Positions 4,163 through 26,684 of a stretch of 64,000 bases of DNA are shown here, one piece after another (the first letter of the stretch is position 1; each line of letters opens with the position of its first letter). Location: NCBI GenBank assembly GCA_963752595.1, contig CAVVYZ010000019.1:61102-125101 (forward strand), written 5' to 3'. The DNA is from an uncultured delta proteobacterium (GTDB taxonomy: Bacteria; Desulfobacterota; Desulfomonilia; UBA1062). The position numbers were made by a program, and so were the translations under genes. The notes beneath the pieces are model-generated. The model was not told the DNA's origin and did not search any database. It worked only from the letters and a program-made list of their open reading frames with translations.

Positions 4163-4191
4163 TTGACAAGATATTAAATCATGAGTAGAAT
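4163..4191 (+). promoter_or_regulatory. Sigma70-type promoter for hbd
   Basis: TTGACA (4163-4168), 17 bp spacer, TAGAAT (4186-4191) in AT-rich DNA. The imperfect palindrome TGAGTAGAATTATATTCA overlaps the -10. Confidence 0.7.
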
Positions 4192-5245: not shown

Positions 5246-6424
5246 ATGAGTGAGGACAAAAGAGCAAAAATATTAGCTTCCGCCGAAGAAATCATGTCGG
5301 AGAAAAGGCTCGCGGATACCACAATTTCAGAAATAGCCGCCAAGGCAGGGGTAGCTGATTCGGTTATTTATCAATACTTCAAAGGCAAGGAAGATATATT
5401 GTTTTCCGTGCCTGGCGAGAGGATGAAGGAAGTATTATTTTTGCTTGGAGAGCATCTGCAAGGCATTCGAGATGCTGAAAGCCGCTTGAGCAAGATGATC
5501 TGGTTTCATTTAAGGGACATAGATACTCACCCCGGATATGGCCGAATATTGCTCCTGGAGTGCAGATCTTCACCCGACTTCTATATGACGCCGGCTTATG
5601 ATCTCGTAAAGGAATATTCGGATGTCCTTTATACTATATTAAAAAATGGCGTCGAGGATGGATCATTTCGTTCTGACCTGAATGTCAAAATAGCCCGAGA
5701 TATCATACTCGGCACTCTTGATTCGGAAATAATAAGCTCTCTTGCCTTGGGCGAGATTGCAGAAGGCGCTCCGGACCATGAAGATATCATGTCATTAGTT
5801 CATGCCATGGTTACCTCGACGGCCAAGCCGATCTACAGTAAATCAGACAGGATCCTCAGGGCAGCCGAAAAAGTTTTTGCCGAGAAAGGATTCACCAAGT
5901 CGAAAATATCTGAAATTGCAAAGATTGCCGGGATCTCAGAGGCAACAGTATATGAATACTTTGAAAATAAAGAGGATGTTTTTCTCTCTATCCCTCAGAA
6001 ACGCTTCCAGGAAAACCTGGATGAACTTTCTGAAACATTCCATATAAAGCATCCTGTGAGGAAACTGAAAAGGTTTACTAAATACTATTTCTTCCTTCTT
6101 CTTACAGAAGAAGATTTCTTGAAAGTTTTTCTTCTTCAGCTCCAATTGAGTCCGCGGTTTTATGCCTCAAAATCATTCGCGAGCTTCCGGAGATATTTTT
6201 CTGTAGTTGAAGGAATCATAGAAGAAGGCAAGAAAGAAGGATATTTCAGAGCCGATGTAAATCCTCGCGTATTCAGAAATATGTTTTTTGGTGCGTTCAC
6301 TCATCTGGCACTTCGATGGGTAATGTCTCAGGATGGAAAAGAACCTGACAAAATAAAAGAAATAAAACACGCAGCAGATTTGTTCTGTTCGGCAGTTATG
6401 GCTCTTGATGGTGATGAGGATTGA
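5246..6424 (+). CDS. TetR/AcrR-family regulator with two tandem TetR units
   Basis: Two HTH regions (ISEIAAKAGVADSVIYQYFKGKED and ISEIAKIAGISEATVYEYFENKED), each followed by a C-terminal FRxD motif domain; 392 aa. Confidence 0.9.
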   Translation: MSEDKRAKILASAEEIMSEKRLADTTISEIAAKAGVADSVIYQYFKGKEDILFSVPGERMKEVLFLLGEHLQGIRDAESRLSKMIWFHLRDIDTHPGYGRILLLECRSSPDFYMTPAYDLVKEYSDVLYTILKNGVEDGSFRSDLNVKIARDIILGTLDSEIISSLALGEIAEGAPDHEDIMSLVHAMVTSTAKPIYSKSDRILRAAEKVFAEKGFTKSKISEIAKIAGISEATVYEYFENKEDVFLSIPQKRFQENLDELSETFHIKHPVRKLKRFTKYYFFLLLTEEDFLKVFLLQLQLSPRFYASKSFASFRRYFSVVEGIIEEGKKEGYFRADVNPRVFRNMFFGAFTHLALRWVMSQDGKEPDKIKEIKHAADLFCSAVMALDGDED

Positions 6425-6507
6425 AGCAATGTTTTCAAATCAGACTCGGCTTTTATCAGGAGAGAAAAAAAGGAATTCGATAAAAAAGAGCTAAAACGTA
6501 GTCAGAT

Positions 6508-6609
6508 AGGGTTCTGCCTAGAGCCGGCCAACTCGAAGCGGACGTAAGAACGATATAAGCGGGCATTGTGGGAGCCTACATAACCACAATGCCCGCTTTT
6601 TTGTTGCCC
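6508..6609 (+). ncRNA. Candidate cis-regulatory RNA/attenuator, copy A (upstream of the thiolase gene)
   Basis: Homologous to 21481-21583(-). 13-bp stem GCGGGCATTGTGG/CCACAATGCCCGC followed by a T-tract; conserved GCCGGCCAAC, GGACGTAAGA and GGGAGCC blocks. Confidence 0.7.
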
Positions 6610-6693
6610 TGATGAAGGTAAGGGTACGTATTTCATAGGTATTTAAGCAAAAATAAAAATTGATCCGTCAAAGAAAATTAAGGGAGAAAAAAA

Positions 6694-7908
6694 ATGAACA
6701 AGAAAGATGATGTCGTAATCGTAAGTGGAGTGAGAACACCATTCAGCAAGTTTGGCGGAACCTTGAAAAATATTCATAGTACAGATCTGGGTTGTGTAGT
6801 TATCAAAGAGAGTCTCAAGAGAGCAGGACTCAAAGGCGAAGATCTGGATGAACTGTACTACGGGATGTGCGATCAGGCAGAAGCGGCCCTTTATGATAAT
6901 GTAAACGGGCGACAGGCATTACTTCGCGCAGGCCTTCCTCAAACCCTGGTGTCACTCACTATAGACAGGGCGTGCTGTTCTTCGCTCTGTGCGGTTCATC
7001 TTGGAAGAAGAGCGATTTTATTGGATGAAGCAAATGTGTGTATGGCAGTGGGCGCCGAGAACATGGGCAATACCCCGCTATTGATAAACGGACATCGGTG
7101 GGGAGGAGGGATGGCGCCGCTTCTGGTTCAAGATTATCTCAATCCCATCACCTATCGGGAGTATTCTCCTTTGGGAAGAGACGCCGGAGAGATCGCAATT
7201 GAATATGGAATATCACGGGAAGAGCAGGACAAATGGGCGGTGGGTTCACAGCAGAAGTGGGCCATGGCTGACAAAGCGGGAAAATTCAAAGATGAGCTTG
7301 TGCCGGTAGAAGTACCACAGAAAAGAGCCGACCCGATCCTTTTTGACAGGGATGAGTTCCCGAAGCCGAATACCACTCTGGAAGGTCTGGCAAAATTAAA
7401 AACCATATACGGAAGCCCTACGGTAACCGCCGGTAATGCTCCGGGGCTTGATACAGGAGCTGCCGCAGTGATTATCATGAGGAGATCCAAGGCGGAAGAG
7501 CTGGGCGCTAAGCCTCTTGCCACCATCATTACAGCAGCCAGTGCCGCCAGTGAGCCAAGGAGAATGGCTGAGCTTCCCGGATTCGTAATACAGAAAGCTT
7601 TGAAGAGGGCTGACCTCAGTATCGATAAGATGGACGTTATTGAGATCAATGAGGCCTTCGCGGCAGTTACCCTTGTATCCACCAAGATTCTTGCCGGAAA
7701 TGATGAAACCAAATGGCGTGAGCTCCTGAAAAAAACGAATCCTAACGGCGGTGCAATTGCGATCGGCCATCCGGTTGGAGCAAGCGGGGCACGAATTCTG
7801 ATCACGATGATGCACGAGTTGAGGAGAAGGGGCGGCGGTTATGGAGTGTGCGGTATCTGCGGTGGTCTGGCACAGGGTGATTGTGCCATCATCAAAGTGG
7901 ATGAATAA
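6694..7908 (+). CDS. Thiolase (acetyl-CoA C-acyltransferase family)
   Basis: RTPFSKFGG, TAGNAPGLDTGAAA, EINEAFA and GHPVGASGAR. Catalytic Cys motifs are variant: DRACCSS and ICGGLAQG. Confidence 0.92.
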   Translation: MNKKDDVVIVSGVRTPFSKFGGTLKNIHSTDLGCVVIKESLKRAGLKGEDLDELYYGMCDQAEAALYDNVNGRQALLRAGLPQTLVSLTIDRACCSSLCAVHLGRRAILLDEANVCMAVGAENMGNTPLLINGHRWGGGMAPLLVQDYLNPITYREYSPLGRDAGEIAIEYGISREEQDKWAVGSQQKWAMADKAGKFKDELVPVEVPQKRADPILFDRDEFPKPNTTLEGLAKLKTIYGSPTVTAGNAPGLDTGAAAVIIMRRSKAEELGAKPLATIITAASAASEPRRMAELPGFVIQKALKRADLSIDKMDVIEINEAFAAVTLVSTKILAGNDETKWRELLKKTNPNGGAIAIGHPVGASGARILITMMHELRRRGGGYGVCGICGGLAQGDCAIIKVDE

Positions 7909-7995
7909 TGGAATGTTCCTGTTCATCAACAAAGATGGATTGAATACAGGAACAGGAACATTCGCTATTCGGTAATGAAACCGGGAGATAACGTA

Positions 7996-8760
7996 ATGAA
8001 ATATATAAAATATGAGATTGAGAATCAGATAGCAACGATAACGATCAATCGACCTGAAGTGCTGAATGCACTGAATAAAGACCTTATCGATGAGTTTGGG
8101 TTGACCATCGACAATATGATGAATGAAGGCAATGCGCGTGTTTTGATTATTACCGGCGAAGGGAAAAGCTTCGCAGCAGGTGCCGACATTGTCCAGATGA
8201 TAGAAATGAATCCTGCTCAGGCGAGAGGATTCATTTTTAGTGATGTGTTTAATAAAATCGAAGCGCTTCCGATTCCGGTTTTTGCTGCAATCAAGGGTTT
8301 TGCTCTTGGCGGCGGGTTGGAACTGGCTCTCGCGTGTGATTTTCGCATCTGCAACGCTAAAGCAAAATTAGGACTGCCGGAAATCAAGCTCGGGATTATG
8401 CCCGGGGCGGGCGGGACACAGCGTCTGCCGAAACTCATAGGATTGAGCCATGCCCGGGAAATGATCTATTTCGGCGATATCATCGATGCAGAGAAAGCGT
8501 ACCAGTGGGGTCTGTGTGATAGAGTCGTAGAGGGAGATCCTTTAGAGCAAGCGAAAGAACTGGCAGCAAAGGTTATTGAAAAATCCTCTGTCGCTCTCGA
8601 AGCGGCAAAGAAGACAATAAATTACGGTATAGATAAGGATTTGTCTTCCGGAATAGCCTTTGAAGTCATTGTATGGTCCGACCTTTTCTCCACGGCCGAT
8701 CAGAAAGAAGGGATGAGGGCGTTTCAGGAAAAGAGAAAACCTAATTTTAAAGGTAAGTAA
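7996..8760 (+). CDS. Enoyl-CoA hydratase (crotonase family)
   Basis: INRPEVLNAL, FAAGADI, GGGLELALACD and PEIKLGIMPGAGGTQRL. Start 7996 chosen for its GGAG RBS. Confidence 0.92.
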   Translation: MKYIKYEIENQIATITINRPEVLNALNKDLIDEFGLTIDNMMNEGNARVLIITGEGKSFAAGADIVQMIEMNPAQARGFIFSDVFNKIEALPIPVFAAIKGFALGGGLELALACDFRICNAKAKLGLPEIKLGIMPGAGGTQRLPKLIGLSHAREMIYFGDIIDAEKAYQWGLCDRVVEGDPLEQAKELAAKVIEKSSVALEAAKKTINYGIDKDLSSGIAFEVIVWSDLFSTADQKEGMRAFQEKRKPNFKGK

Positions 8761-8815
8761 GTGAAGTGTGGACAGATTGTGAGATGCATACCATTCGTAC
8801 GAGGAGAGTGGATAA

Positions 8816-10618
8816 ATGGAAAACAAGCTGGCTGATTTAAGAGATACTCGTTTTGTTCTTTACGAACAATTAGGAATAGAAAAACTTTGTGAAACGGAGA
8901 AATATGCGGATCATTCCAAGGAAACCTTTGAGATGATCATCGATACGGCTGAGAAACTTGCCGTGAATCAATTTGCCCCGGTCAACAGCGAGGGTGATGA
9001 GATAGGATGCGTCTTTGCAGAAGGGACCGTCAAGTGCCCTGAAGTATACCGAACTCCTTTTCAGAAATACTGCGAAGGGGGATGGATGAGTCTTCCCGAC
9101 GTATACGATGTAGGCGGCCAGAATGCACCTTTTGCTATGTACTTTGCCTGCCATGAGCTGTTCTATGCCGCGAACCATGCGTTAACCGTTTATATGGGCC
9201 TTACCCACAGCGCAGCCAAAGTCACAGAGATCTTTGGAACGGATGAGCAGAAGAGGAAATACATGCAGCCCCTGTACGAAGGAAGGTACAGCGGCACCAT
9301 GGATCTGACCGAGACCCAGGCAGGAAGCGATGTGGGTTTTGCGAGAACAAAGGCAATCAGAAATCCGGACGGTACCTATTCGATTGTCGGAGGGAAGATA
9401 TTCATCAGCAGCGGGGAGAATAATCTTACTGAAAACATCATTCATATTGTTTTAGCACGCATAGAAGGAGCACCAGAGGGGACTCGTGGTTTATCATGTT
9501 TTATCGTTCCCAAATACAGAGTCAACGATGACGGAACACTGGGTGAACCCAATGATCTTACCTGCGCGGGCGTAGAGCATAAAATGGGTATACACGGTTC
9601 TCCGACAAGCGTCCTGAACTTTGGCGACAACGGTAGGTGCAGGGGTGAACTCTTAGGACCCGAACAGAAAGGCATTATCGTTATGTTTCACATGATGAAT
9701 GAGCAAAGGGTGCTGGTCGGCTTGCAGGGTCAATCTCTGGGAAGTACCGCATATCTTCATGCTCTGGATTTCGCACGGGAACGTAAACAGGGCAGCAAGT
9801 TCGGCTCTAAGGATTTTTCACAGGTGCCCATCATAACTCATCCTGACGTGAGGAGAAATCTCATGTGGATGAAGTCGTATACCGAAGGACTGCGGGCCCT
9901 CATACTGTACACGACTTTTTGTATGGACATGGAGGCTGCAAGTACCGGCGAGGATGACAAGAAGAAGTGGCAGAATATTGTGGAGTTGCTGACCCCCATT
10001 GCCAAGGCCTATTCCACCGATAAAGGTTTTGATGTATGCACGCGGGCCATACAGGTTCATGGAGGATATGGTTATTGCAAGGAATACAAGGTGGAACAGT
10101 TCGCCAGGGACTGCAAGATCACTGCAATCTATGAGGGCACGAATGCAATACAGGCAATAGATCTGTTCGGCCGTAAGATCAAGATGAACAAGGGTGCGGC
10201 ATACAACACGGTACTATCGGAAATGAAAGCCGCGGTTGAAAAGGCCTCGGCAGTAAGCGAGCTTGCACCGTATGCCGAGGCAGTTGCACAATCCATATCA
10301 GCGCTTGAAGAGATAACACGATTTCTGATTGAAAAGTCCTCGGGCGAAGATGCGTACCTGGCATACTCCTGGGCCACGCCGTACCTTGAAATATTCGGCG
10401 ATATCGTCCTGGGATGGATGTTTATCTGGCAGGCATGGACAGCCCATGGAAGTGAGGCCGGCAGCAGCGCTAATGACAAGCAATTCTATGCCGGCAAAAT
10501 CAATACGGCAAAATTCTATATCGGGTCACTGCTTCCCGCAGTCTATGGGAAGATAGATGCCATAAAACAGTTCGACCGGTCATTCCTTGAGATAGGGGAG
10601 TCTGTCTTTCTTCCATAA
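8816..10618 (+). CDS. Acyl-CoA dehydrogenase (long, ~600-aa type with C-terminal extension)
   Basis: GTMDLTETQAGSD, GGKIFIS, EHKMGIHGSPT, IQVHGGYGY and IYEGTNAIQAIDL. Confidence 0.92.
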   Translation: MENKLADLRDTRFVLYEQLGIEKLCETEKYADHSKETFEMIIDTAEKLAVNQFAPVNSEGDEIGCVFAEGTVKCPEVYRTPFQKYCEGGWMSLPDVYDVGGQNAPFAMYFACHELFYAANHALTVYMGLTHSAAKVTEIFGTDEQKRKYMQPLYEGRYSGTMDLTETQAGSDVGFARTKAIRNPDGTYSIVGGKIFISSGENNLTENIIHIVLARIEGAPEGTRGLSCFIVPKYRVNDDGTLGEPNDLTCAGVEHKMGIHGSPTSVLNFGDNGRCRGELLGPEQKGIIVMFHMMNEQRVLVGLQGQSLGSTAYLHALDFARERKQGSKFGSKDFSQVPIITHPDVRRNLMWMKSYTEGLRALILYTTFCMDMEAASTGEDDKKKWQNIVELLTPIAKAYSTDKGFDVCTRAIQVHGGYGYCKEYKVEQFARDCKITAIYEGTNAIQAIDLFGRKIKMNKGAAYNTVLSEMKAAVEKASAVSELAPYAEAVAQSISALEEITRFLIEKSSGEDAYLAYSWATPYLEIFGDIVLGWMFIWQAWTAHGSEAGSSANDKQFYAGKINTAKFYIGSLLPAVYGKIDAIKQFDRSFLEIGESVFLP

Positions 10619-10699
10619 TGATCGGATGAAAAAATGGATGTAAATAAATAGTGAGACAGGATCTGATTTACAATTAATAAACTAAATAGGAGTGTTACC

Positions 10700-12155
10700 A
10701 TGCCGATGATGAACGCGAAGCAGTATGAAGAGTCTCTGAGAAAACTGAACCTTAAGGTATACATGTTCGGCAAGAGGGTGGAGAACGTGGTGGACGATCC
10801 GATCATCCGGCCGTCCATGAACGCGGTTGCGGCGACCTACGAGTTTGCCCACAAGCCGGAATATGAGGATATCCTGACCGCCAAGTCGCACATCACGGGC
10901 AAGAAGATCAACCGGTTCACCCACATACACCAGAGCGTGGACGACCTGGTGAAGAAGAGCAAGATGGGCAGGCTCATGGGCTCGCTCACTGCCTGCTGCT
11001 TCCAGCGGTGCGTGGGCATGGATGCCATGAATGCCCTGTCCATCACCACCCATGCCATCGATGCCAAGTACGGCACCAAGTACTACAAGAGGTTCCTGAA
11101 GTATCTGGAATATGTCCAGGAGAACGACCTGGTCTGCGACGGGGCCATGACCGACCCCAAGGGCGACCGGTCATTGTCTCCGAACAAGCAGTCAGACCCG
11201 GACATGTTCCTGCACATCGTGGAGGAGCGTCCGGACGGGATCGTGGTATCGGGCGCCAAGGCCCACCAGACAGGTGCCGTGAACTCCCACGAGATCATCG
11301 TGATGCCCACTATTACCATGCGGGAGGAGGACAAGGACTATGCGGTGTCGTTCGCGCTGCCGAGCGATGCGGAAGGCATCACCTACATCATGGGCCGCCA
11401 GTCCTGCGATACCCGCAAGCTCGAAGGTATGACCTTTGACCGGGGCAACATGTTCTATGGCGGTCATGAGGCGCTCGTTGTGTTCGATCGTGTCTTCGTG
11501 CCCTGGGAGCGCGTGTTCATGTACAAGGAATACGACTTCTCAACCATGCTCGTGGAAAACTTCGCCTCCTATCACCGCCAGAGCTACGCGTGCAAGGTGG
11601 GTGTTGGAGACGTGCTCATCGGCGCTACCCAGACCGTTGCCGAGTACAACGGTGCCGAGCGGGCCTCCCATGTGAAGGACAAGATCATCGAGATGAACCA
11701 CCTGAACGAAACGCTCTTCTGCGGCTGCATCGCCTGTGCTGCAGAAGGCCACCGGGAGCCGAGCGGAACGTACCAGAACGATCTGCTGCTTGCCAATGTG
11801 CACAAGCAGAATATCACCCGGTTCCCCTACGAGATCGCCACGGCTGGCCCAGGACATTGCGGGCGGCCTTGTGGTGACCTGCCCGTCCGCCCAGGACCTT
11901 TCCTCTCCGGAGACAGGCAAGTGGGTGGATAAATACTTCAAGACCAAGGCAGACGTCCCCACGGAACACCGGATGCGGATCTTAAGGCTCATCGAGAACA
12001 TCACCATGGGCACCGCCGCCGTGGGGTACCTTACCGAGTCCATGCACGGTGCAGGCTCACCCCAGGCCCAGAGAATCATGATCGCCAGGCTCGTCAATAT
12101 GAAACAGAAGCAGAAGGTGGCCAAGTTCCTGTGCGGCATCGACAAGGAAAAATAA
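10700..12155 (+). CDS. abfD: 4-hydroxybutyryl-CoA dehydratase (AbfD; FAD/[4Fe-4S]) with one frameshift near 11840
   Basis: Cluster-ligand motifs CFQRCVGMDA and YHRQSYACKVGVGD, plus MTDPKGDR. The C-terminus (RLAQDIAGG...ESMHGAGSPQAQ) continues in ORF 11736-12155; one extra base in GAGATCGCCACGGCTG. Confidence 0.88.
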
Positions 12156-12436
12156 GGGTCGGTCTGAAGTACTGCGGCGGATGCCGGGCTCAGTACGACC
12201 GAGAGGCTGTCGTGAATCATATGAAAGAAGCATTGAAGGATCAAGTCGAGTTCATCTCGCCCGACAGCCGGGAGGCGGAATGTATTCTTGTAGTCAGTGG
12301 ATGCAAGACAGCCTGCGCGGACGTCTCCATGCTTTCAGATCGCCGGGTCCGGTTCATCACCAGTGAAGAAGATGCTGCAGCCTGGATAGAAGAAGAGAAG
12401 CAACGTAAAAAAAACCGCTTAGGGAGGATGAAATGA
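12131..12436 (+). CDS. Small Cys-rich hypothetical protein (KYCGGC...GCxxAC)
   Basis: Fills the gap between abfD and the CoA ligase and overlaps both; clustered Cys motifs. Exact start uncertain. Confidence 0.7.
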   Translation: MRHRQGKIRVGLKYCGGCRAQYDREAVVNHMKEALKDQVEFISPDSREAECILVVSGCKTACADVSMLSDRRVRFITSEEDAAAWIEEEKQRKKNRLGRMK

Positions 12437-13938
12437 ATATTGCCAGCTTTCTGACAAACACAACGGCACGAGTTCCCGATCAGCCCGCTATTCGATTTAA
12501 GGGAAAGACAATCACTTTCCGTGAGATGAATTCCAAGGTAGACGCCATGGCCCACGGGCTCAGCAAGATGGGGCTTAAACCCGGTGACGCCTGCGTTCTC
12601 ATGACACCCGACTCACCGAACTGGCCGATTGTATATTATGCATTGGCAAAGATAGGAGCGGTCGTGGTCCCGGTAAACCCTATCTACAAAAAAAGAGAGC
12701 TTGAACATAGTTTCAAGGACTCAGGAGCAAAAGCATTCGTGGGCCACACTGACTATCTGGCGGAAGCCGGCGCTGTCCTGGATGGAATACCGGCAATTAA
12801 GATCAGAGTTGCCGAAGGCAAAAATCCGCCGAAGGGGTTTACTCCATTAAACGATCTGTTTTTGGACGATGCAGGAGAGTATCCTGTTTACCAGACCCAA
12901 CCTGATGACCCCTGGATTGTAATGTATACCAGTGGTACGACGGGGTTGCCGAAGGGTGCTGTCCTGACTCACTTCAATCTTATGAAGGATGCTGAGGTTA
13001 TCGCAGCCGTGAGGTATACGGAACCGCATGATGTTGTATTAAGCGTACTGCCTCTCTTTCACTGTTACGGGCAGACCCACTCGCTCAATATCTCTATTTA
13101 TCAGGGTCTTACTATCCTCATGTTCGATAAATTCAACGTTGAAGAGGTCTTCACGGCTATTGAAGAGGAAAAAAGCACCCTTTTGTATGCTGTCCCGACA
13201 ATGGTCAACAGGTTGGTTGAACTGGCAGCAGTCAGACCGCCGAAACGATCGGGGCTGCGCTTTTGTATCTCCGGAGGAGCATCCCTTCCTGTGGAGATCC
13301 TGCACCGCTTTGAAAGCTTATTTCATGCAACCATCTATGAGAGCTACGGGTTGACGGAATGTTCTCCGACCTGTGTGGAAAATCCTTTTGGAAGACCGCC
13401 GCGCCCGGGGTCCATCGGCTTGCCGATTCCTCCCTTTAAGACCCGTCTCGTTGATGAGAACGATCAGGATGTACCACGCGGGGATGTGGGCGAACTGCTA
13501 GTATCCGGACCCGGGGTCATGAAGGAATACCTGCACCAGCCCGAAGCCACGGCAACAACAATGAAAGGCGGGTGGCTGCATACCGGTGATCTCGCCCGGA
13601 TGGACGAGGATGGCTACATCTACATCGTAGACAGGAAGAAAGACCTGATCATCAGAGGCGGATATAATGTGTATCCACGCGAAATAGAAGAAGTTCTTTA
13701 TACCATTGAAGACGTTCTGGAAGCTGCTGTAATCGGCGTACCTCATAAAGATCTTGGAGAAGAGGTTGCAGCAGCAGTTGTGCTTCGTAAAGGCTCCACA
13801 ATGACTTCTGAAGATGTGAAACAGTATATAAAGGATCGCGTGGCAGCATATAAATACCCGAGGGTGGTGAACATCATGAAAGAATTGCCGAAAACGTCCA
13901 CCGGAAAAATTTTAAAGCGAGGTATTACTTTGAATTAA
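12433..13938 (+). CDS. Acyl-CoA synthetase (AMP-forming, long-chain-fatty-acid-CoA ligase family)
   Basis: YTSGTTGLPKG, YGLTE, WLHTGDL, DRKKDLIIRGGYNVYPREIEE and LPKTSTGK. Confidence 0.93.
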   Translation: MNIASFLTNTTARVPDQPAIRFKGKTITFREMNSKVDAMAHGLSKMGLKPGDACVLMTPDSPNWPIVYYALAKIGAVVVPVNPIYKKRELEHSFKDSGAKAFVGHTDYLAEAGAVLDGIPAIKIRVAEGKNPPKGFTPLNDLFLDDAGEYPVYQTQPDDPWIVMYTSGTTGLPKGAVLTHFNLMKDAEVIAAVRYTEPHDVVLSVLPLFHCYGQTHSLNISIYQGLTILMFDKFNVEEVFTAIEEEKSTLLYAVPTMVNRLVELAAVRPPKRSGLRFCISGGASLPVEILHRFESLFHATIYESYGLTECSPTCVENPFGRPPRPGSIGLPIPPFKTRLVDENDQDVPRGDVGELLVSGPGVMKEYLHQPEATATTMKGGWLHTGDLARMDEDGYIYIVDRKKDLIIRGGYNVYPREIEEVLYTIEDVLEAAVIGVPHKDLGEEVAAAVVLRKGSTMTSEDVKQYIKDRVAAYKYPRVVNIMKELPKTSTGKILKRGITLN

Positions 13939-13963
13939 AACCGATCTCTTTATAACTGCCCCC

Positions 13964-14056
13964 GCGGATAGCTCCGATCTGACAGCTGAGATCTGACTAT
14001 ATATCCTCCGTAAAAGGTGACGACCAGTAAATAAGATCGGAGCTATTCGCTTTTTT
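13964..14056. repeat. 17-bp inverted repeat enclosing a 53-nt foldable spacer, followed by T6
   Basis: GCGGATAGCTCCGATCT (13964-13980) versus AGATCGGAGCTATTCGC (14034-14050), 16/17 complementary. Confidence 0.75.
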
Positions 14057-14079
14057 GGATCGGGAAAGTCACGAACTGA

Positions 14080-14138
14080 AAGCCCCCTCTCCCCTCCCTT
14101 TCCCCTGTTTCGGGGGGAAAGGGCAAGGGAGAGGGGGC
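14080..14138. repeat. REP-like purine/pyrimidine hairpin between convergent genes
   Basis: GCCCCCTCTCCC..CCCTTTCCCC / GGGGAAAGGG...GGGAGAGGGGGC; shares AAGCCCCCTCTCC with 62610-62622. Confidence 0.65.
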
Positions 14139-14171
14139 ATCTCCACTTGTGAATTCAACGTTGACGAATAA

Positions 14172-15329
14172 CTAGAACAACCTCGAAGAATCGGTCATGA
14201 GGGCCTTACCTGCAACCATACGGTTGATCTGGTTGGTTCCTTCGAAGATCTGGGTTAATTTGGCATCCCGCATGAGCTTCTCGACGACAGAACCCTTCAT
14301 ATAACCCGAACCGGCCAACACCTGAACTGCATCGGTCGTGACCTTCATCGCTGCATCAGATGCGAAATATTTGGCAGAAGCAGCCTCTTTCGAGCATCGG
14401 ATGTTGTTGTCAAGCATCCAGCCGACCTGCAAATAGAGTGCGCGAGATGCCATGACAAGAGTATTCATGTCTGCGAGCATGAATTGCACCGCCTGGAAAT
14501 TTCCGATGGGCTGGCCGAACTGAACCCGCTCCTTTGCGTATGCTACAGATTCATCAAGCGCTCTCTGGGCGATTCCGGTGGATACCGCAGTAATATTTGC
14601 ACGTCCTCTGTCGAGGGCCATCATGGCAAGCTTGAAACCTTGGCCTTCGCCACCGATGAGGTTTTCCTTGCTGAGTTCGACGTTGTCGAAGAACAGTTCA
14701 GCAACATTCATTGCCCGGTGCCCCATCTTATCCTCGATCCGCCCTACGGTTATTCCCGGGGTGTTCCGGGGTACGGCGAAACAACTGATACCCTTTGTCC
14801 CCTTGCTTTTATCCACCGTGGCAAACAGGCACAATAAATCGGCATATTGACCGTTCGTTATGTAACACTTGGAGCCGTTCACCACGTAGCCGTCGCCCTT
14901 TTTTAAGGCCGTTGTATTCATTATTCCCGCATCGGACCCGGCATGGGGCTCTGTGAGGCAAAAACATCCGCTCCGGTAACTCTTCGTCATATCTCCGATG
15001 AATTTCTTTTGCTGATCCACGGTCCCGCCCAACTGGATCGCTCCCATGGACAAGTGGGATATTCCGATTATCTGCGATATGGCGCAGCACTCGTAATTCA
15101 ATGCCTCGGTTACCAGATAATGTTCGAGATACGACATTCCCGATCCGCCGTATTCCTTTGGTATGTTGGTATACATCAATCCGGCCTTGTACGCTTCTTT
15201 GAGAATCTCTTCGGGATACGTGCCGTCCCTGTCATATTCAATAGCTACCGGCCGGATCCGATCTTTTCCGAACTTTCTTGCAAGATTTAATATACTTTTC
15301 TGTTCGTCGCTTAAGCTGAAATCTATCAT
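14172..15329 (-). CDS. Acyl-CoA dehydrogenase (short-chain/butyryl-CoA type)
   Basis: FCLTEPHAGSDA, NGSKCYITNG, EDKMGHRA, ERVQFGQPI and RDAKLTQIFEGTNQI. ATG 15329 has a GAGGT RBS. Confidence 0.93.
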   Translation of the reverse strand: MIDFSLSDEQKSILNLARKFGKDRIRPVAIEYDRDGTYPEEILKEAYKAGLMYTNIPKEYGGSGMSYLEHYLVTEALNYECCAISQIIGISHLSMGAIQLGGTVDQQKKFIGDMTKSYRSGCFCLTEPHAGSDAGIMNTTALKKGDGYVVNGSKCYITNGQYADLLCLFATVDKSKGTKGISCFAVPRNTPGITVGRIEDKMGHRAMNVAELFFDNVELSKENLIGGEGQGFKLAMMALDRGRANITAVSTGIAQRALDESVAYAKERVQFGQPIGNFQAVQFMLADMNTLVMASRALYLQVGWMLDNNIRCSKEAASAKYFASDAAMKVTTDAVQVLAGSGYMKGSVVEKLMRDAKLTQIFEGTNQINRMVAGKALMTDSSRLF

Positions 15330-15433
15330 AGTCAATACCTCACTTCCTTTGATGTAGAATTAATGGCCCTGGTGATTCATTTTTACCGTACGCTCACCTG
15401 TATATCCTATCAGCACCTCATTCGGTTCATCTT

Positions 15434-16201
15434 CTATATGAACCCGTATGCGGTCCATCCCCCATCGATATTCACAACCGATCCGGTCATATAGGTCGAC
15501 TCGTCACCGGCCATGTACACCGCCAAGCCTGTTATTTCTTCCACATTGCCTATCCTTCTCTGCGGAATGCGCTTCTTCAGGGACTCCGTATCCAATTTCC
15601 CCTGCTGCTCGAGCTGTTGAATAAACTCAGTATTCAAGTATCCCGGGGCAATTGCATTCACGCGAATATTTTTTTCCGCCCATTCGGCGGCCAGAACCTT
15701 GGTAAGCATATTGACTGCCGCCTTGCTTGAACAATAGGCAGCCCGTTGAGGCACCGGACTATCACCAAATGATGACGAAATGTTTATAATGCATCCGCCG
15801 CTCTTTCTGTCGATCATATGTCTCGCAACGGCCTGACTGCAGAAGAATACTCCGGAAAGATTCGTGCTTACGGCATTATTCCAGTTTTCGTGCGACAGGC
15901 TTTCCGAAGGGCTTACCATCGGGATCCCGGAATTGTTGATCAGGACATCTATCTTTCCGTAGCGCTCAACCGTTTCGTTTACTGCGTTCTGAATGCTTTC
16001 ACCATCTTTCACATCCATCCTGATTGGGTATGCTTCACCGCCGGATGCATTGATCTCGCTGCAGAGATCTTTCAGTAAATCATACGAGCGCCCGGTCAGA
16101 ACAACGGATGAGCCCTCTGAAGCAAATCTCACGGCAAACGCCTTCCCAAGACCTTTGCTTGCGCCTGTGATGATGGTGATCTTGTTCTGTAATAAACCCA
16201 T
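15434..16201 (-). CDS. SDR-family oxidoreductase
   Basis: TGASKGLG, NNSG, YCSSK (YxxxK), IRVNAIAPG and IDGG. Confidence 0.92.
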   Translation of the reverse strand: MGLLQNKITIITGASKGLGKAFAVRFASEGSSVVLTGRSYDLLKDLCSEINASGGEAYPIRMDVKDGESIQNAVNETVERYGKIDVLINNSGIPMVSPSESLSHENWNNAVSTNLSGVFFCSQAVARHMIDRKSGGCIINISSSFGDSPVPQRAAYCSSKAAVNMLTKVLAAEWAEKNIRVNAIAPGYLNTEFIQQLEQQGKLDTESLKKRIPQRRIGNVEEITGLAVYMAGDESTYMTGSVVNIDGGWTAYGFI

Positions 16202-16310
16202 TTGCCCCTCCTGCCTTGTCCGGATTCTCCTTAAAAGCGATCTCTCTCGGTTTGATTCAACTGCCTGTATTTATGAGGTTAAATATAGTTCATTCTTTTG
16301 CTTTATGCCT

Positions 16311-16778
16311 CTACGCACGCTTGATCATGAGCGTTTTATATCCGGACTGGACGATCACATTGTTCTGATTCAACAGTTCTAAATACAGCCTTATTATGCC
16401 GCGGTCCTTTCTGGTTTTGCTGGGTACTTTCCCGGCAACTTTCACCTTTGCCCGGATTGTGTCTCCAAAGAATATCGGGGCTGCAAATTTCCAGTCGTCA
16501 ATACCAAGAAAGGCGATAGCAGTACCGTCAAGAAACCCGGTCCGAAACAGAAGCCCGTGGGATATCGACAGCCCGAGCAGTCCATGGGCAATCCTTCTCC
16601 CGAACTGATTGCCCTTCGCAACCTCTTCGCTGGTGTGCAGCTCATTATAATCGCCGGTCATCCCGGCAAACATCACCACATCGGTCTCGGTTATCGTTCT
16701 GGAGCGAGTTTCAAACTCTTCGTTTTCGTTCCATTCATCAAAGTATTTCCCGTTCACTTTTATATCCTTCTCTCGCAA
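16311..16778 (-). CDS. MaoC-like (hot-dog fold) dehydratase / R-specific enoyl-CoA hydratase
   Basis: RTITETDVVMFAGMTGDYNELH...FGRRIAHG...PIFFGDT hydratase-2 motif. Confidence 0.88.
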   Translation of the reverse strand: MREKDIKVNGKYFDEWNENEEFETRSRTITETDVVMFAGMTGDYNELHTSEEVAKGNQFGRRIAHGLLGLSISHGLLFRTGFLDGTAIAFLGIDDWKFAAPIFFGDTIRAKVKVAGKVPSKTRKDRGIIRLYLELLNQNNVIVQSGYKTLMIKRA

Positions 16779-16799
16779 TAAGCGTTGATAACGTTTGAA

Positions 16800-17900
16800 T
16801 TACCCGACCCTTCTCCTGCCGCGGCCTTTGGCGTCAGCCAGTTTCATGCCTGCGATGACCAGCTCCGTCGTCACGGGCACGGGCTCGTTGTGTATGGTCT
16901 GCTTCTCGGAACAGGCGATCGAAGCGGCTTTCACCAGATCCTCTTCAGATACGTCATTCAGGCCGAGGTCGCCCAATGTCGTGGGCAGGCCGACCGATTC
17001 GCAGAATGAATACACCCCGTCGATCACTTCTGACGGTTTGTCTGTCATGAACAATGAGGCCAGTAAGCCGAAGGCAACCTTTTCTCCATGATAAGAGGAA
17101 TGCTCCCTGTCGAGTGCATTCAGCCCGTCCTGGATAGCGTGAGCCGCAGCAAGCCCCCCGCTCTCGAAACCGATTCCGCTCAAGAGGGTATTGGCCTCTA
17201 CGATATGCTCCAGCGCAGGCGTTACCACGTGATGTTCGCAGGCGGTCTTTGCGGATGCCCCATATTCAAGAATCGTCTCATAACAGAGGCGGGACAGGGT
17301 CTGGGATGTCATGGAGCTTATGTCCCCGGCCATGGTCTTTGCGTATTTGATCCTGCATGATTCCGCCTCAAACCACGTCGCCAGCGCATCCCCCATGCCT
17401 GCGACCAGGAGCCTGACCGGAGAGTTTGCGATGATCTTCGTGTCGACCAGAACGACGTCAGGGTTCCGTCGAAGTGCGATTACCCGTTTTATCTGCCTGG
17501 TCTCACTCCGGTATATAATGGAAAGGGCACTGCAGGGAGCATCCGTCGAGGCAACGGTCGGTGCAATGATAACGGGAACGTTCATCAGATGTGCAACCGC
17601 TTTGGCAGCATCGAGTGTCTTGCCGCCTCCAAGGCCCACTATGACATCACACGGCGGATCCCCTGCAATTGCCGCCAGCCGGGTTATTTCTTCATCGGAA
17701 CATTCACGCCCGAATTTCTCAACTGTTATAGACGCTGCTTCTTCGAGGGAAGGACGGATCTCAGGGAGGATATGATCGAACACCGAAGGACTGCAGATGA
17801 GAAATCCCTTTTTCCCATAGTGAGGAATCAGTTTCTTCAAGCGCAGAATCGCGTCATATCCTTGGATGTATCTGCCGGGGAATAGTGTCGTCGTGATCAT
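16800..17900 (-). CDS. gldA: Glycerol dehydrogenase family (metal-dependent polyol dehydrogenase)
   Basis: FPGRYIQG, GGGKTLD, PTVASTDAPCSALS, GDALATWFEA, GFESGGLAAAHAI and HGEKVAFG. Confidence 0.88.
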   Translation of the reverse strand: MITTTLFPGRYIQGYDAILRLKKLIPHYGKKGFLICSPSVFDHILPEIRPSLEEAASITVEKFGRECSDEEITRLAAIAGDPPCDVIVGLGGGKTLDAAKAVAHLMNVPVIIAPTVASTDAPCSALSIIYRSETRQIKRVIALRRNPDVVLVDTKIIANSPVRLLVAGMGDALATWFEAESCRIKYAKTMAGDISSMTSQTLSRLCYETILEYGASAKTACEHHVVTPALEHIVEANTLLSGIGFESGGLAAAHAIQDGLNALDREHSSYHGEKVAFGLLASLFMTDKPSEVIDGVYSFCESVGLPTTLGDLGLNDVSEEDLVKAASIACSEKQTIHNEPVPVTTELVIAGMKLADAKGRGRRRVG

Positions 17901-18159
17901 GTGGAGCCATTCACTCCTTTTTAATACTCCTTGCCCAAAACCTGTCCATTAACGATCAGTTAACGCACCATGAGCAAGGCAATATGATTCTTGGGATTGA
18001 GGCCCATATCATGAAAGAAACAAGAACAGCCGCCCGGCCTTCTACACTGCCGATATGATCTGTTTCTCCTGTTTCAGTCATGATACAGGCCCGTTTGTCG
18101 AGGTTTAAGTTCTCATACCCGTTTCAATAATTGATTCCTGTTTTTTCCTGAAAATTACA

Positions 18160-19482
18160 TCATCCGCCAATACCATAAATCAGGTTCGGCAGCCACAGTG
18201 CTATCTGCGGGAAAATCGACACGATGGTCAGGCCGAGCAACTGCAGAATGATGAAAGGAATAATGGACATGTAGATGTCCTTGATCATGACTCCTTCGGG
18301 CGCGATGCTCTTGAGATAGAAGAGGTTATACCCGAACGGAGGCGTAATGTAGGCACACTGCATGTTCATGATGAAGACGATGCCGAACCACACGGGGTCG
18401 AATCCCATGACAGCCACGATGGGCGTGAGAATGGGAGCCGTGATCATGACAATGGCCGATGGGTCGAGCAGCATGCCCAGAGCGAAGAATACGGCCTGGA
18501 TGATAAAGAAGGCCCCCCAATATCCGAACGGCAGGTCCTGCACCAGACTGCTGATGAACTCCGATGCACCCAGCGCCATGTAGATGGTGGAGAAACAGTA
18601 GGCGCCGATAACGATCCACATCACCATACCGGTCAGCTTCAGGGTTCCAAGCGAGATGTCCCTGAACATTTTCCAGGAAAACTGCCCGCTCGCGATCATT
18701 AAAATGAAACTACCCGCACAGCCGACCGCCGCGCCTTCGGTCGGCGTAGCGACACCCGTGAAGATCGTGCCCAGAACAGTGCAGATGAGGAGCAAAGGCC
18801 CAATAACAGCCTTTGTCGCCAATATTTTTTCCTTGAAGGAAAGGAGCTCGTCTTCGGGAATGCCGGGACCTTTCGAAGGGTCTATCTTGCATACGGCAAG
18901 GGTGTAACCGATGTACAGGGATGCCAGCAGAAGCCCGGGCAGAATACCGCCTGCAAAAAGCCTCCCGATCGAAACCTGGCAGATCATGCCGTAGATGATC
19001 ATCGTGATGCTTGGGGGAATCAGAATGCCCAGAGCGCCGCCGGCACCGATGCCGCCGAGGGCCAGCTTCTTGTCGTAGCCCCTGGAAAGCATTGCCGGCA
19101 GGGCGATGAGACCCATGGTAATGGTGCCGGCCCCGCCGATGCCGGTCATTGCGGCAAAGAGCGTGCACACGATGATGGCGGCAACCGCCAGGCCCCCGCC
19201 CATCCGACCGCTCCACACATAAAAGGCATTGAAGAGCTTGTCCGCGATGCCCGAGAACTGAAGGATGAAACCCATGAGCACAAAGAGCGGAACGGAGAGA
19301 AGGCCGAACGACATCATGGCCTTCCCGAAGATCAGGGTGGGAATGACAGACATCGCGTCGGGCCACAGGAAAAAGGTAAAGATAACGCCGATGGACCCCA
19401 GCACGAACGCGATAGGAAGCCCCGAGCACAGACCGGCGACCATGGCAACCGTCAATAAGATGGTAATCGTCCCGGGCTCCAT
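18160..19482 (-). CDS. dctM: TRAP transporter large permease (DctM)
   Basis: Multiple transmembrane segments; VPLFVLMG, GALGILIPPS, TPTEGAAVG and ITPPFGYNLF. Confidence 0.93.
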   Translation of the reverse strand: MEPGTITILLTVAMVAGLCSGLPIAFVLGSIGVIFTFFLWPDAMSVIPTLIFGKAMMSFGLLSVPLFVLMGFILQFSGIADKLFNAFYVWSGRMGGGLAVAAIIVCTLFAAMTGIGGAGTITMGLIALPAMLSRGYDKKLALGGIGAGGALGILIPPSITMIIYGMICQVSIGRLFAGGILPGLLLASLYIGYTLAVCKIDPSKGPGIPEDELLSFKEKILATKAVIGPLLLICTVLGTIFTGVATPTEGAAVGCAGSFILMIASGQFSWKMFRDISLGTLKLTGMVMWIVIGAYCFSTIYMALGASEFISSLVQDLPFGYWGAFFIIQAVFFALGMLLDPSAIVMITAPILTPIVAVMGFDPVWFGIVFIMNMQCAYITPPFGYNLFYLKSIAPEGVMIKDIYMSIIPFIILQLLGLTIVSIFPQIALWLPNLIYGIGG

Positions 19483-19988
19483 TATTCTACCTTCCTTTCC
19501 TTGTCGGTGAGCGTCAAAATATCCTGCATAATCAGTGCGATCCCTTCAAGGAGCAATAGAACCGCCCCAAGGGGTATCATGAGCTTGACCGGCCAGATTA
19601 TCGGCGACCAGGTGCTGATCGATCTCTCATTCAGCTCGATCGCACGCATCGCAAAGTCCCATCCAAGCCACAGGATGATCACGGCAAAAACGAAGAACGC
19701 GGGAAACGTGATGAGGCTTGCGATCGCCTTTCCCCGTGGCGACAGTTTGACGTAGAAAAGGTCCATATTCACATGGGCCTTCTCCTTCAGCGCATAGGCC
19801 CCGCTTATAATGGTGAGCACGCCAAACACCATAACGCTGATTTCGTGTGCCCAGATGGTGGGTTTGTTGAATACGTTTCTCATTATGAGTTCCCATACGA
19901 TGATCACGGTAAGGATCCATGGAAACCACATGAGAACCATACCGCTCACATCTACTATTTTTGAGATGATCCGGATAAGTGCACGCAT
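19482..19988 (-). CDS. dctQ: TRAP transporter small permease (DctQ)
   Basis: About 4 transmembrane segments; PTIWAHE and AYALKEKAHVNMD; lies between dctP and dctM. Confidence 0.9.
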   Translation of the reverse strand: MRALIRIISKIVDVSGMVLMWFPWILTVIIVWELIMRNVFNKPTIWAHEISVMVFGVLTIISGAYALKEKAHVNMDLFYVKLSPRGKAIASLITFPAFFVFAVIILWLGWDFAMRAIELNERSISTWSPIIWPVKLMIPLGAVLLLLEGIALIMQDILTLTDKERKVE

Positions 19989-20098
19989 TATAGTATCTTC
20001 CTCACTTTCTCAAAGGCCATTGTACTCAGGAACGATTCAGAAATGATAGAGGAGGCATCACCGCCGGGATGCCGGAAGCGTGCCCCCTCCTGATCAAA

Positions 20099-21169
20099 CT
20101 ATTTCAGATAGCCCATTGTTCTCATGTAATTCTTTGTCATCTCCACGAGCTTGGCCGATGCGGGGCTTCTTTGTGCCTCTTTCGCCCACAATTCCTGGGC
20201 AGCCTTCTCGGCTTTTGCCAGCTCTGCGCCACTGAGTGTGTTCATTTTTACCCCGGCCTTTTTCATCTGGGCCAGACCCCACTGCTCACCCGTCCAGTTC
20301 TGGTGGTAAGTATGGTTCAACCCGGCGATGATCATTGCCTGCTCAAGGGCTACCTTGAGGTCGGCAGGCAGCGAGTTCCATGCCCTCTGGTTCACGATCA
20401 CGTTAGCAGTGTTGATGGGCATGATCGGGGGCCACAGGAAGTACTTGGCAACTTCATGGAACTTCACGCTGTGCATTGCAATAGCGCTGCCCCAGCTCAC
20501 CCCGTCGAGGGCGCCAGTCTGAAGAGAGGTATAGGTTTCTTCGCCGGGGATAAACACGCCGTTGCCGCCGAATTTCTCGATCCAGTTCATCATCAGACCG
20601 GATGCCCGGACCTTCTTGCCCTTGATATCGTTGAGGGTGTTGATGGGAGTTCTGAACATGAATGAGCCGGGCCAGCAGTCAACACCGGTGGTGAGCAGAT
20701 ATACGCCCTGTTTTTGATATTCCGGCCTCAGTACGTCGATTGCCCGCCAACCGCCGAAGATGTTCGGCAGCTTCTTTCCATACATGAAGTTGTACAGCTC
20801 GTTCGGGGTCCTGATTCCGAAAGGAAGACCGTACTCTACGGCTGCTGCCGGAATGACGCCCTGATAGGTATAAGCAGACGCGAGGCCGATCTCAACAACG
20901 CCCATCTTCACGGAATCCAATATATCCGGGGTTGCCACCAGCTCGCCGCCCCAGTACATTTTGATCTGCAGACGCCCGTTTGTCATGGCGGGAAGAGTTT
21001 TGGTGAGCATCTCTACGTAATATTGCATCCCGGGCTCAGCGGCGCTGCGCCATGCCTGCATCTTCCACTTGTAAACTTTCTGCGCAGGTTGCGCAGCATC
21101 ACATGGAAAAGAGCTGCTGAGGAATACCGCTAAAGCTAGAAGCACAATCCCTAGAACCTTGTTTTTCAT
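20099..21169 (-). CDS. dctP: TRAP substrate-binding protein (DctP)
   Basis: Signal peptide from ATG 21169 (GGAGG RBS); KWKMQ, TNGRLQI, DIKGKKVRA and ETYTSLQTGALDG. Confidence 0.9.
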   Translation of the reverse strand: MKNKVLGIVLLALAVFLSSSFPCDAAQPAQKVYKWKMQAWRSAAEPGMQYYVEMLTKTLPAMTNGRLQIKMYWGGELVATPDILDSVKMGVVEIGLASAYTYQGVIPAAAVEYGLPFGIRTPNELYNFMYGKKLPNIFGGWRAIDVLRPEYQKQGVYLLTTGVDCWPGSFMFRTPINTLNDIKGKKVRASGLMMNWIEKFGGNGVFIPGEETYTSLQTGALDGVSWGSAIAMHSVKFHEVAKYFLWPPIMPINTANVIVNQRAWNSLPADLKVALEQAMIIAGLNHTYHQNWTGEQWGLAQMKKAGVKMNTLSGAELAKAEKAAQELWAKEAQRSPASAKLVEMTKNYMRTMGYLK

Positions 21170-21480
21170 AAAAGCCTCCCTCGATTTTGTATGTATTATC
21201 GTTAATCTTTTCCAACATATTCCCTGCATATTGACAAATCCCATGAAGCTACATGAATCACTTCCCGGATACCTTCCGAGGCAAAACAGAATGCTATCCC
21301 ACACCCTCATCTATCAGCACCAGCAACACCAGCTTAACGACATCAATGTTATCAGCCTTTCCCAAGAATATTTCACCATGCGCTACCCGGAACATAATTA
21401 TATTTAATTGTTATTTTTATTGAATCTAATTCTATCCGGTCCTTGCCTTGCATCCGCCATCCCATTTATTTCACATCGCC

Positions 21481-21583
21481 GGGCAACAAAGAGAGCGGGC
21501 ACTATGGTAATGTGGGCTCCCACAGCGCCCGCTCTCTTTGCTCTTACGTCCACCCCGGGTTGGCCGGCCCGGAGTTGAACCCT
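21481..21583 (-). ncRNA. Candidate cis-regulatory RNA/attenuator, copy B (upstream of the TRAP operon)
   Basis: Reverse complement aligns to 6508-6609 at about 78/103 positions; 17-bp stem GAGAGCGGGCGCTGTGG/CCATAGTGCCCGCTCTC followed by TTTGTT. Confidence 0.7.
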
Positions 21584-21626
21584 TTATTCCCTAATCGTTC
21601 ATTCCGTCATGAAAACTCCTCTGTCC

Positions 21627-21935
21627 TCATGCATTGCCGTCTATTTCCCAGCCGTCACTAGTACGGTTCTTCTGCCCCTTCACAACGGAGCACAGGAGAT
21701 CCGTCACGTGATTAAGTTCTGCAGCTAACGGCTTCCCTGCTATCCGGCAACTATTCATATGGGCGCGGAACGCCCCTTGGGAGAATTCATTCTGCGGAAA
21801 TACATCACGGCTTGAGCCATCTTTAAGGGTTATACGGCGAGTGAGCATTTCGATATCTGCTGCGAAGGAACAGATAGTAGGCTTTAGTATACCCTTGTAA
21901 TTTTTATTAGCATTAATAATGTCATGTTGTTGCAT
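21627..21935 (-). CDS. Small hypothetical protein (~102 aa from ATG 21935)
   Basis: Open frame between a consensus-like promoter and RNA copy B, with purine-rich sequence upstream of the ATG. No recognisable domain; start uncertain (ORF track starts at 22007). Confidence 0.45.
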   Translation of the reverse strand: MQQHDIINANKNYKGILKPTICSFAADIEMLTRRITLKDGSSRDVFPQNEFSQGAFRAHMNSCRIAGKPLAAELNHVTDLLCSVVKGQKNRTSDGWEIDGNA

Positions 21936-22007
21936 TGAACCTGCCCTTCTCTCCTCTATATCGGGATGGGTCATCTTGCCAAAACCAACAACAAGCTTTG
22001 AATCCAT

Positions 22008-22063: not shown

Positions 22064-22406
22064 TACTTATTTGTTTTAATTTTATCACTTATATTATTCT
22101 CTGTTTTATCATGTAGTTGTTTATTTTCTTCATATCTAGAGTCCCTTTTGTGTCATTGTTTAACCTGAATTTTATTTTTTTTGGAAGGTTATCGAGTGAT
22201 CATGTTGGCTTTTCTTCACCATACCGGGCCAGGAGAACAATAAGGAATCAAGGGTTCTTCCCAATCGGTTCTTCTCCAAATAATGCTTGATTTGGGAATA
22301 AAGGTAAATATTGACTAATCTTCTGCAACTGCTTACAGATAATGATGCCCTCTCCCATGCTCATCAGTAAAAGGAGAGATGCTTGGGGCAGACTGAAAAA
22401 ATGATT

Positions 22407-26228: not shown

Positions 26229-26681
26229 GGCTTTTTGTCACCGAAGCCCTGGATCTCGTCGACGAAATCCCTCACATCCTTGAACTCGCGGTACACGGAA
26301 GCAAACCGCACATACGCAACAGGTCGAGGCGGTGAAGGGCTTCCATGACCTTTTCCCCGATGTAGGAAGAAGGGACCTCGCGGTCCCATTTAGCTTGGAT
26401 ATCGTGGATGATCGAGTCCTTGACCGACTCGATTTCCTCAATGCTCACGGGCCTTTTTTCACATGCGGTGGTGATGCCGGAGATCACCTTTTGGGGTCGA
26501 AGGCCTCTCTCCTGCCATCTTTTTTGATCACCATCGGCACCGATTCCTCGACCTTTTCATAGGTGGTGAACCGGTACGCGCACTTGATGCATTCCCGCCT
26601 GCGCCGAATGGAGCAGCCATCCCGGCTTATCCTGGACTGGATAACCTTGTCTTCAAGCCCAGAACATCTGGGACAGCGCAT
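26225..26681 (-). CDS. nrdR: Transcriptional repressor NrdR (frameshifted in this sequence)
   Basis: MRCPRC...[16 protein letters not shown]...[12 protein letters not shown]; ATP-cone pieces and YREFKDV occur in other frames; TGA overlaps the ribD ATG. Confidence 0.9.
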
Positions 26682-26684
26682 GTA

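Follow-up and report, generated by a model that had tools for sequence, protein, structure and literature searches.

Two copies of an RNA element in an acyl-CoA catabolic island

The window analysed here is a 64,000-nt stretch of the genome of an uncultured delta proteobacterium (Desulfobacterota, Desulfomonilia, UBA1062; contig CAVVYZ010000019.1, positions 61,102–125,101), in which two non-coding copies of about 100 nt, A and B, had been predicted to act as a twin leader RNA of two convergent operons. Both copies are present at the coordinates and in the gene context of the original prediction (Table 1), with a global identity of 76%. Genome-wide blastn aligns them at 79.5% over 88 nt (E 8e-15), and the pair forms the longest inverted repeat within window positions 1–24000 (75% over 95 nt). 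In the 4.12-Mb, 84%-complete assembly, nhmmer and a covariance model recover A and B as the only full-length copies. The two copies fold more stably than shuffled sequences, with z-scores of −4.5 and −6.6.

Copy A sits between the tandem FadR-like TetR gene and a thiolase-led beta-oxidation operon, in a mid-operon position ~2.3 kb downstream of the candidate promoter at 4163. A terminator scan calls copy A at −25.6 kcal/mol, 85 nt ahead of the thiolase gene, and copy A would likely gate entry into the thiolase operon. Copy B sits between a poorly conserved 126-codon open reading frame (ORF) and a TRAP transporter operon, ~310 nt upstream of the likely dctP start (21169), and the same scan makes no call for it. 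Copy B may only terminate or insulate. Its U-tract is weak and there is a TATAAT in the gap to dctP, so it is possibly no leader of the TRAP operon.

Table 1. Coordinates of the RNA copies, their parts and the flanking genes in the window
Feature	Coordinates	Strand	Basis or remark
Copy A, whole RNA element	6507–6611	+	85.4 bits, model R2
A, P1 5′ strand (partner 6606–6610; read-through RNA only)	6508–6512	+	Minimum-free-energy fold and family covariation
A, hairpin P2 (loop GGCC 6526–6529; family loop GRYN)	6513–6542	+	
A, conserved junction CGNAAG	6543–6548	+	
A, position of decoy hairpin P3b (6562–6565 with 6573–6576)	6562–6576	+	Sequence
A, decoy hairpin P3a, GAGC tetraloop	6567–6580	+	
A, terminator hairpin (6557–6571 with 6584–6598) and U-tract (6597–6605)	6557–6605	+	
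Copy B, whole RNA element	21479–21584	−	81.3 bits
B, hairpin P2 (loop GGCC 21565–21562)	21578–21549	−	
B, junction	21548–21543	−	
B, long hairpin	21542–21485	−	
B, U-tract	21494–21485	−	Weak
B, tail	21484–21481	−	
Candidate sigma70-type promoter TTGACA-17-TAGAAT, operon containing A	4163–4191	+	Consensus match only
3-Hydroxyacyl-CoA dehydrogenase	4270–5130	+	
Tandem TetR, FadR(YsiA)-like regulator, directly 5′ of A	5246–6424	+	NF053878 above cut-off
Behind A: thiolase, enoyl-CoA hydratase, acyl-CoA dehydrogenase, HpaB-family protein (frameshifted), acyl-CoA ligase	6694–13938	+	
Behind B: TRAP dctPQM, glycerol dehydrogenase-like, MaoC dehydratase, SDR, acyl-CoA dehydrogenase	14172–21169	−	
126-codon ORF ahead of B	21627–22007	−	Poorly conserved

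Between copy A and the thiolase gene, the block GATCCGTCAAAGA (~6665–6677), just 5′ of the thiolase ribosome-binding site, is retained in G000, G003, G004 and G007, the remainder of the spacer having diverged (G-numbers denote the genomes compared, G000 being the source genome, and L-numbers denote loci from the scans described below). On the side of copy B, an imperfect 23-nt inverted repeat (83%; 21581–21603 and 22282–22304) brackets the 126-codon ORF and touches the first bases of the copy; it may be a chance occurrence or a mobile-element scar. The ORF has one other homologue in a protein search and a counterpart in G004 (46% over 71 aa); with a single homologue in that search, it was rejected as an improbable regulator.

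Anatomy and distribution of the RNA family

Four pattern scans of viral contigs, each with a different part of the motif freed, return 23 true elements among 33 loci, 41 full elements and one truncated element among 48 loci, 90 passing elements among 101 distinct ones (in the scan covering 45 of 64 parts of the collection), and 62 distinct elements from 82 loci. The 120 loci of a metagenome scan (24 of 64 parts) contribute 70 distinct passing elements, two of them seemingly false on visual inspection, and a scan of a genome collection (25 of 64 parts) gives four true elements among 119 matches. Merging yields 182 distinct elements in 172 clusters at 90%. A pattern built on the loop shared by A and B matched 12 viral loci, all by chance.

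In a 42-sequence MAFFT alignment, 84% of cells pair, with double-sided changes at 22 of 26 pairs; none of 500 shuffles, which leave relatedness in place, matches this level, and slid controls pair at no more than 53%. Mutual information recovers the helices described next and assigns the P2 loop no partner elsewhere. P2 is 30 nt long in 55 of 89 family members, and among 89 elements found without fixing its loop, that loop reads GGCC in 66, GAUC in seven, GACG in five, GGCA in four, GGCG in three and otherwise in four. The two bases following CGNAAG pair with the two preceding the tail GCCC in 83/89 elements, and the upper stem of the terminator pairs with its own loop letter in 88/89. Two short hairpins overlap the terminator. 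P3a consists of four covarying pairs present in 84–87 of 89 elements (a fifth step drops to 19/89), and P3b pairs perfectly in 123 of the 127 elements that could be parsed (10 of 137 could not), compared with a permutation mean of 69 and maximum of 82, with multi-base swaps among GGCA/UGCC, GGCU/AGCC, GGUC/GACC, GGCC/GGCC and AGCC/GGCU. In copy A, only three of the four P3b pairs form. Mean energies are −4.0 kcal/mol for P3b, −3.8 kcal/mol for P3a and −23.0 kcal/mol for the terminator, and the three are mutually exclusive because they share strands. Furthermore, P1 and the base of P3 require bases 3′ of the U-tract, which itself has at least seven U in 8 nt in 118/127 elements (partly by construction of the filter). 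The sense strand folds better in 174/182 elements, and G-U pairs number 799 in the sense strand versus 413 in the antisense strand. At the level of sequence comparison, the position, the strand, the five helices and their mutual exclusion are established.

Upstream of P1, positions −7 to −3 form an A-rich, G-poor stretch (A at 0.74, 0.58, 0.82 and 0.66, then U at 0.58). A promoter directly 5′ of the element was rejected, as there is no −35 signal and the A-rich hexamer has no fixed first and last T. Kissing between the loops was likewise rejected: loop 2 remains GWGC across P2 loops of GGCC, GAUC, GACG, GGCA and GGCG.

These comparisons bear out the prediction of a strand-specific cis-acting RNA that is conserved, covaries and contains a terminator, and the short UGUGG-GAGC-CYACA hairpin proposed to compete with that terminator is P3a. 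The other alternative pairings proposed for A and B do not extend to the family: the 5′ GGUUC segment pairs in full with the proximal 5-mer in 26/182 elements and with the terminator loop in 53/182, and GGCCAAC and GUUGCC co-occur in only 8/182. The loop GGGAGCCYACAU, described as conserved, is indeed alike in A and B because these share a recent ancestor; in the wider family its positions are covarying pairing partners and hold no fixed sequence. Membership in atoC or another catalogued family, which had been left open, finds no support: Rfam 15 returns two tRNAs only on the window, sub-threshold miRNA- or snoRNA-type noise on the two copies at E ≤ 10, and no match over the element on 20 phage loci. 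The family is uncatalogued in Rfam 15, atoC included. A description of the motif was not found in the full-text literature, a search whose coverage excludes the alignment supplements of PMC10690425 (8,495 IMG/VR candidates), PMC5737381 and PMC11109978, and the readable tables (3–6) of PMC10690425 contain none of the contig identifiers or motif words tried.

Nearly all members of the family reside at intergenic, sense sites in the morphogenesis operons of many unrelated phages, as a rule directly ahead of capsid, scaffold, portal or tail genes. Among 100 elements with enough flank, a crude ORF heuristic places a sense gene downstream of 96 and upstream of 86, and a sense stop within 120 nt of 77. 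The downstream ORFs, taken by cluster representative (n = 80), comprise 29 named virion proteins, 16 members of unnamed phage families and 35 without a match, many of which look scaffold-like or tube-like by inspection; no metabolic enzyme is among the 80. The named virion proteins are 13 major capsid proteins, six scaffolds, seven portal or adaptor proteins, one protease, one fibre and one cement protein. Records carry one copy in 30 of 33 cases and two in the other three, and in some records the two lie ~5–6 kb apart on one strand. Where hosts are named, most belong to Desulfobacterota; the named genome matches are to Syntrophus, Syntrophaceae, Thermodesulfobacteriota and one 3.8-kb contig in a Bacteroidales bin. 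A copy is also present in three of 150 genomes from the phylum of the window, each time in phage-like context. Searches with blastn find no match in cultured phages and only 29-nt chance matches in plasmids.

In the metagenome set, 58 elements have a downstream ORF, of which 35 match the phage set and only two are host-type genes recognised by Pfam, namely a class III CoA-transferase gene (L632) and a BspA-type LRR protein gene (L611). By their sequence context, these are two further, independent host adoptions. A LuxR-type regulator gene lies upstream of both by sequence inspection (L611:286–1278, L632:1–558). Two phage loci depart from the usual form. One copy directly 5′ of a scaffold-like gene (L141:1196–1250) keeps P2 and the junction and has lost the whole terminator domain, which would make it a natural always-on variant, and an intact element in a single-contig genome (L282, G137:C1:1110675–1110781) lies in a decayed prophage head module with a truncated protease gene, a possible intermediate of adoption.

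Among 100 relatives of the source genome, blastn detects the element in G003, G004, G042, G006, G007 and G008, and a model built from eight sequences adds G010, a B-type copy in G004 and three copies in G022, which sit in prophage morphogenesis modules; the model searches scored 26–73 candidates per genome, and copies may be missed. In five genomes (G010 is outside the comparison), the core is 74–91% identical to A, compared with 48–77% for the flanks. The element lies upstream of seven of 26 thiolase homologues, all seven being among the nine with at least 89% identity. In G042 it keeps company with the thiolase despite a different upstream gene, and the TRAP genes of that genome have no B copy there. 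The chromosomal copies can be read as having been acquired once, recently, and as decaying or being lost since then. In G008, one of two tandem-TetR loci (C221) is followed by the element and the other (C170) lacks it and adjoins the thiolase directly. Upstream of the B-type copy in G004, a fragment (L280:197–436) presumably resembles the C-terminus of DndD, judged by its motif, and this DndD-like fragment suggests that the island in G004 borders a defence-island remnant.

A proposed conditional terminator and competing explanations

We propose, with a probability of roughly 0.45, that the element is an RNA of phage virion operons with two adopted chromosomal copies in the window, and that it acts as a local gate, a conditional terminator opened by a host-encoded factor. 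RNA polymerase would enter from upstream and P2 would fold first. The 4-bp P3b would then catch the 5′ arm of the terminator, hiding the G-C base of the terminator stem, until, with further RNA emerging, the 5-bp P3a displaces P3b and frees the stem base; this order of P3b, P3a and terminator is read from the sequence. By default, the 3′ arm would zip up the −23 kcal/mol terminator and polymerase would stop in the U-tract. A partner reading the P2 loop and the CGNAAG junction could hold one of the decoys while the U-tract is transcribed, allowing read-through. The read-through RNA would then refold as a closed three-way junction, which may serve to mark or protect the scaffold, capsid or tube message.

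The retained U-tract and the two selected decoys suggest that termination can be evaded. Since the RNA is common to unrelated phages that have no detectable protein in common, and hosts also use it on their own, the partner probably comes from the host, be it RNA polymerase, an elongation factor or an RNA-binding protein. No protein is common to more than seven of 14 phage records, the most widely shared (seven records) being what we take to be a tyrosine recombinase by its motifs, and 147 small ORFs from eight records contain no Q, NusG or ANTAR domain and one weak Mor match. Intrinsic terminators downstream of the element are at background (eight sense versus 10 antisense in 171 kb from nine records, a count that covers no Rho-dependent sites), which favours a local gate over processive antitermination. 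The host genome encodes a stand-alone, RfaH-like NusG paralogue of 166 aa (G000:C9:92877–93377), a candidate partner; it has no match in the 14 phage records (housekeeping NusG was not among the queries). A version with no protein partner, in which the two-decoy relay senses a host metabolite or polymerase, ties virion synthesis to host state in many unrelated phages of Desulfobacterota and has been domesticated at least three times for host catabolic or surface genes, is rather doubtful.

Several observations weigh against the proposed gate. The decoys are weak, and their covariation could, for P3b, come partly from a few inherited types. The most invariant bases (GGGU/GCCC, UC/GA and CGNAAG) lie together at a junction completed only by read-through and may thus have no role in deciding termination. 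No partner emerged from the searches of the phage records, small, divergent phage proteins could escape such searches, and six of the 14 records are incomplete. On the chromosomes, G002 and G008:C170 keep the TetR–thiolase junction without the element (gap of 66–71 nt, versus 266–298 nt with it), and the element is therefore dispensable there. P3b is imperfect in the chromosomal copies, and those of G006, G007, G008:C221 and G010 have lost P1 and the junction; in these four the 5′ end, junction and tail have drifted and P2 and the terminator persist. Finally, the searches fixed parts of the motif, and although each part was freed at least once, relatives differing in several parts together were beyond reach.

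The A-rich site invites a model of processing and protection, in which the terminator is unregulated. The decoys would set a fixed, kinetically tuned leak, and the read-through RNA would be cut at the A-rich stretch 5′ of P1 and protected by the junction, enriching scaffold, capsid and tube messages. The conservation of that stretch without a −35 signal, the pairing of the 5′ end by P1, the predominance of high-copy virion proteins downstream and the missing trans factor all fit. A strong terminator ahead of the most-needed genes would, however, be costly unless it can be opened, at least seven of the 80 downstream genes encode low-copy portal or head-tail adaptor proteins, and the A-rich stretch is weak in copy A; we regard the model as unlikely. 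Stem-loops of selective RNA processing and stabilisation similarly lie before or between genes for multi-subunit complexes, but these are simple structures, whereas the element has a conserved junction and mutually exclusive hairpins. The gating of a late operon is the textbook role of N/Q-like antiterminators, and the element could instead be the utilisation site of a small, fast-evolving, late-made phage protein that opens the first terminator. Such proteins are hard to detect and there is usually one site per phage. Like the lambda pR′–tR′ gate with Q, the terminator guards the entry to virion genes; unlike it, the element is mid-operon rather than promoter-proximal, has no Q-like protein found with it and encodes alternative folds in the RNA itself. 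The same RNA occurs in phages with unrelated head modules and no common small protein, a crude scan finds Arg/Lys-rich small ORFs in only five of 14 records, and host operons use the RNA without a phage, which together make a dedicated phage protein quite unlikely.

A third possibility is an RNA that binds RNA polymerase in cis, as put or EAR does, and makes it processive through a morphogenesis operon of 20–30 kb, the hairpin being a loading pause or checkpoint. It would account for the host-clade specificity, the mid-operon intergenic site and the fixed length of P2 with no need for a phage protein. HK022 put acts in this way through the zinc-binding domain of the beta′ subunit, and putL is described as followed by a pause, not a terminator (PMC9378689). 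The element resembles HK022 put and EAR in being a phage or intergenic cis RNA that has no dedicated phage protein and is probably specific for the host polymerase, and differs in having its own strong terminator, few terminators downstream and no adjacent promoter signal. Background levels of downstream terminators and the occurrence of two copies on one strand in some records also argue against processivity, which we consider very unlikely. The original prediction favoured ligand- or protein-controlled termination tied to acyl-CoA catabolism. A small-molecule riboswitch whose aptamer overlaps the terminator, in the style of guanidine-IV or HMP-PP, could sense CoA, an acyl-CoA or an energy or signalling nucleotide, and two of the three host adoptions do lie ahead of acyl-CoA enzymes. 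The guanidine-IV (mepA/GGAM-1) riboswitch has a 5′ hairpin, a linker and a second small hairpin incompatible with an intrinsic terminator (10.1101/2020.10.21.349134, PMC7736828, PMC11611296), and the element shares this geometry of two hairpins plus terminator, with P3a and P3b covarying and overlapping the 5′ arm of the terminator. Compared by description rather than by sequence, however, the guanidine-IV loops hold invariant bases and kiss, whereas loop 2 of the element covaries with local partners and there is no loop-loop covariation. The element also has a second decoy and a stem that closes after read-through, its conserved core forming only then, and it precedes virion and acyl-CoA genes, not guanidine-related ones. 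With regulated genes that are overwhelmingly virion genes and 19 of 26 thiolase homologues lacking the element, the link to acyl-CoA sensing loses its footing, and a riboswitch is highly improbable. A selfish repeat (REP or MITE), named beforehand as an outcome that would refute the prediction, or a DNA-level site is largely refuted: presence is patchy and loss among close relatives apparently clean, but there are two copies per genome, 96 of 100 elements are in sense orientation, G-U pairs are enriched in the sense strand and alternative folds covary.

Other known RNAs were compared as well. ANTAR target RNAs have two hexaloops with A1 and G4. As in ANTAR/EutV sites, the second hairpin overlaps the 5′ arm of the terminator and would need a partner to hold it; the element loops CGGCCA and GGWGCC depart from the ANTAR rule. 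An ANTAR search of G000 gave no match, in a genome that is 84% complete and with a control that likewise matched nowhere. The phi29 pRNA has complementary left- and right-hand loops; it was rejected as a relative, the element showing no loop-loop covariation (it is found beside terminase-type packaging genes). A boxA was rejected too, as only the 3′ half resembles the consensus. By analogy, the geometry is closest to guanidine-IV and ANTAR sites and the position closest to the lambda late gate, and assignment to any of these is unlikely.

The element is likely more telling if read as a switch of phage late genes that hosts have adopted than if read as an acyl-CoA riboswitch, and to our knowledge the switching-on of late genes in phages of anaerobic Desulfobacterota is undescribed. 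It is a compact, well-aligned RNA with more than 170 diverse sequences, in which each helix can be broken and repaired in vitro, and its two covarying decoys and read-through-only fold exceed the usual terminator–antiterminator pair. It also clearly exemplifies the takeover of a phage regulatory RNA by a host, close relatives displaying it intact, decaying or missing, and holds a caution for riboswitch hunting, namely that twin copies before related metabolic genes can derive from a phage element.

Other features of the window

On the minus strand, tandem paralogous lipoprotein-like genes lie at 806–2140 and 2239–3543, and a third copy ends near 737. They have lipobox-like N-termini, are ~79% identical over 300 nt at their 3′ ends and have no Pfam or NCBIfam match. 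The HpaB-family gene behind copy A is frameshifted at ~11830–11850, and glyA, rpiB, fabF and fabG (26627–27942, 27939–28286, 28553–29690 and 30036–30677) look split or truncated, which together suggests indel errors in the assembly rather than pseudogenes.

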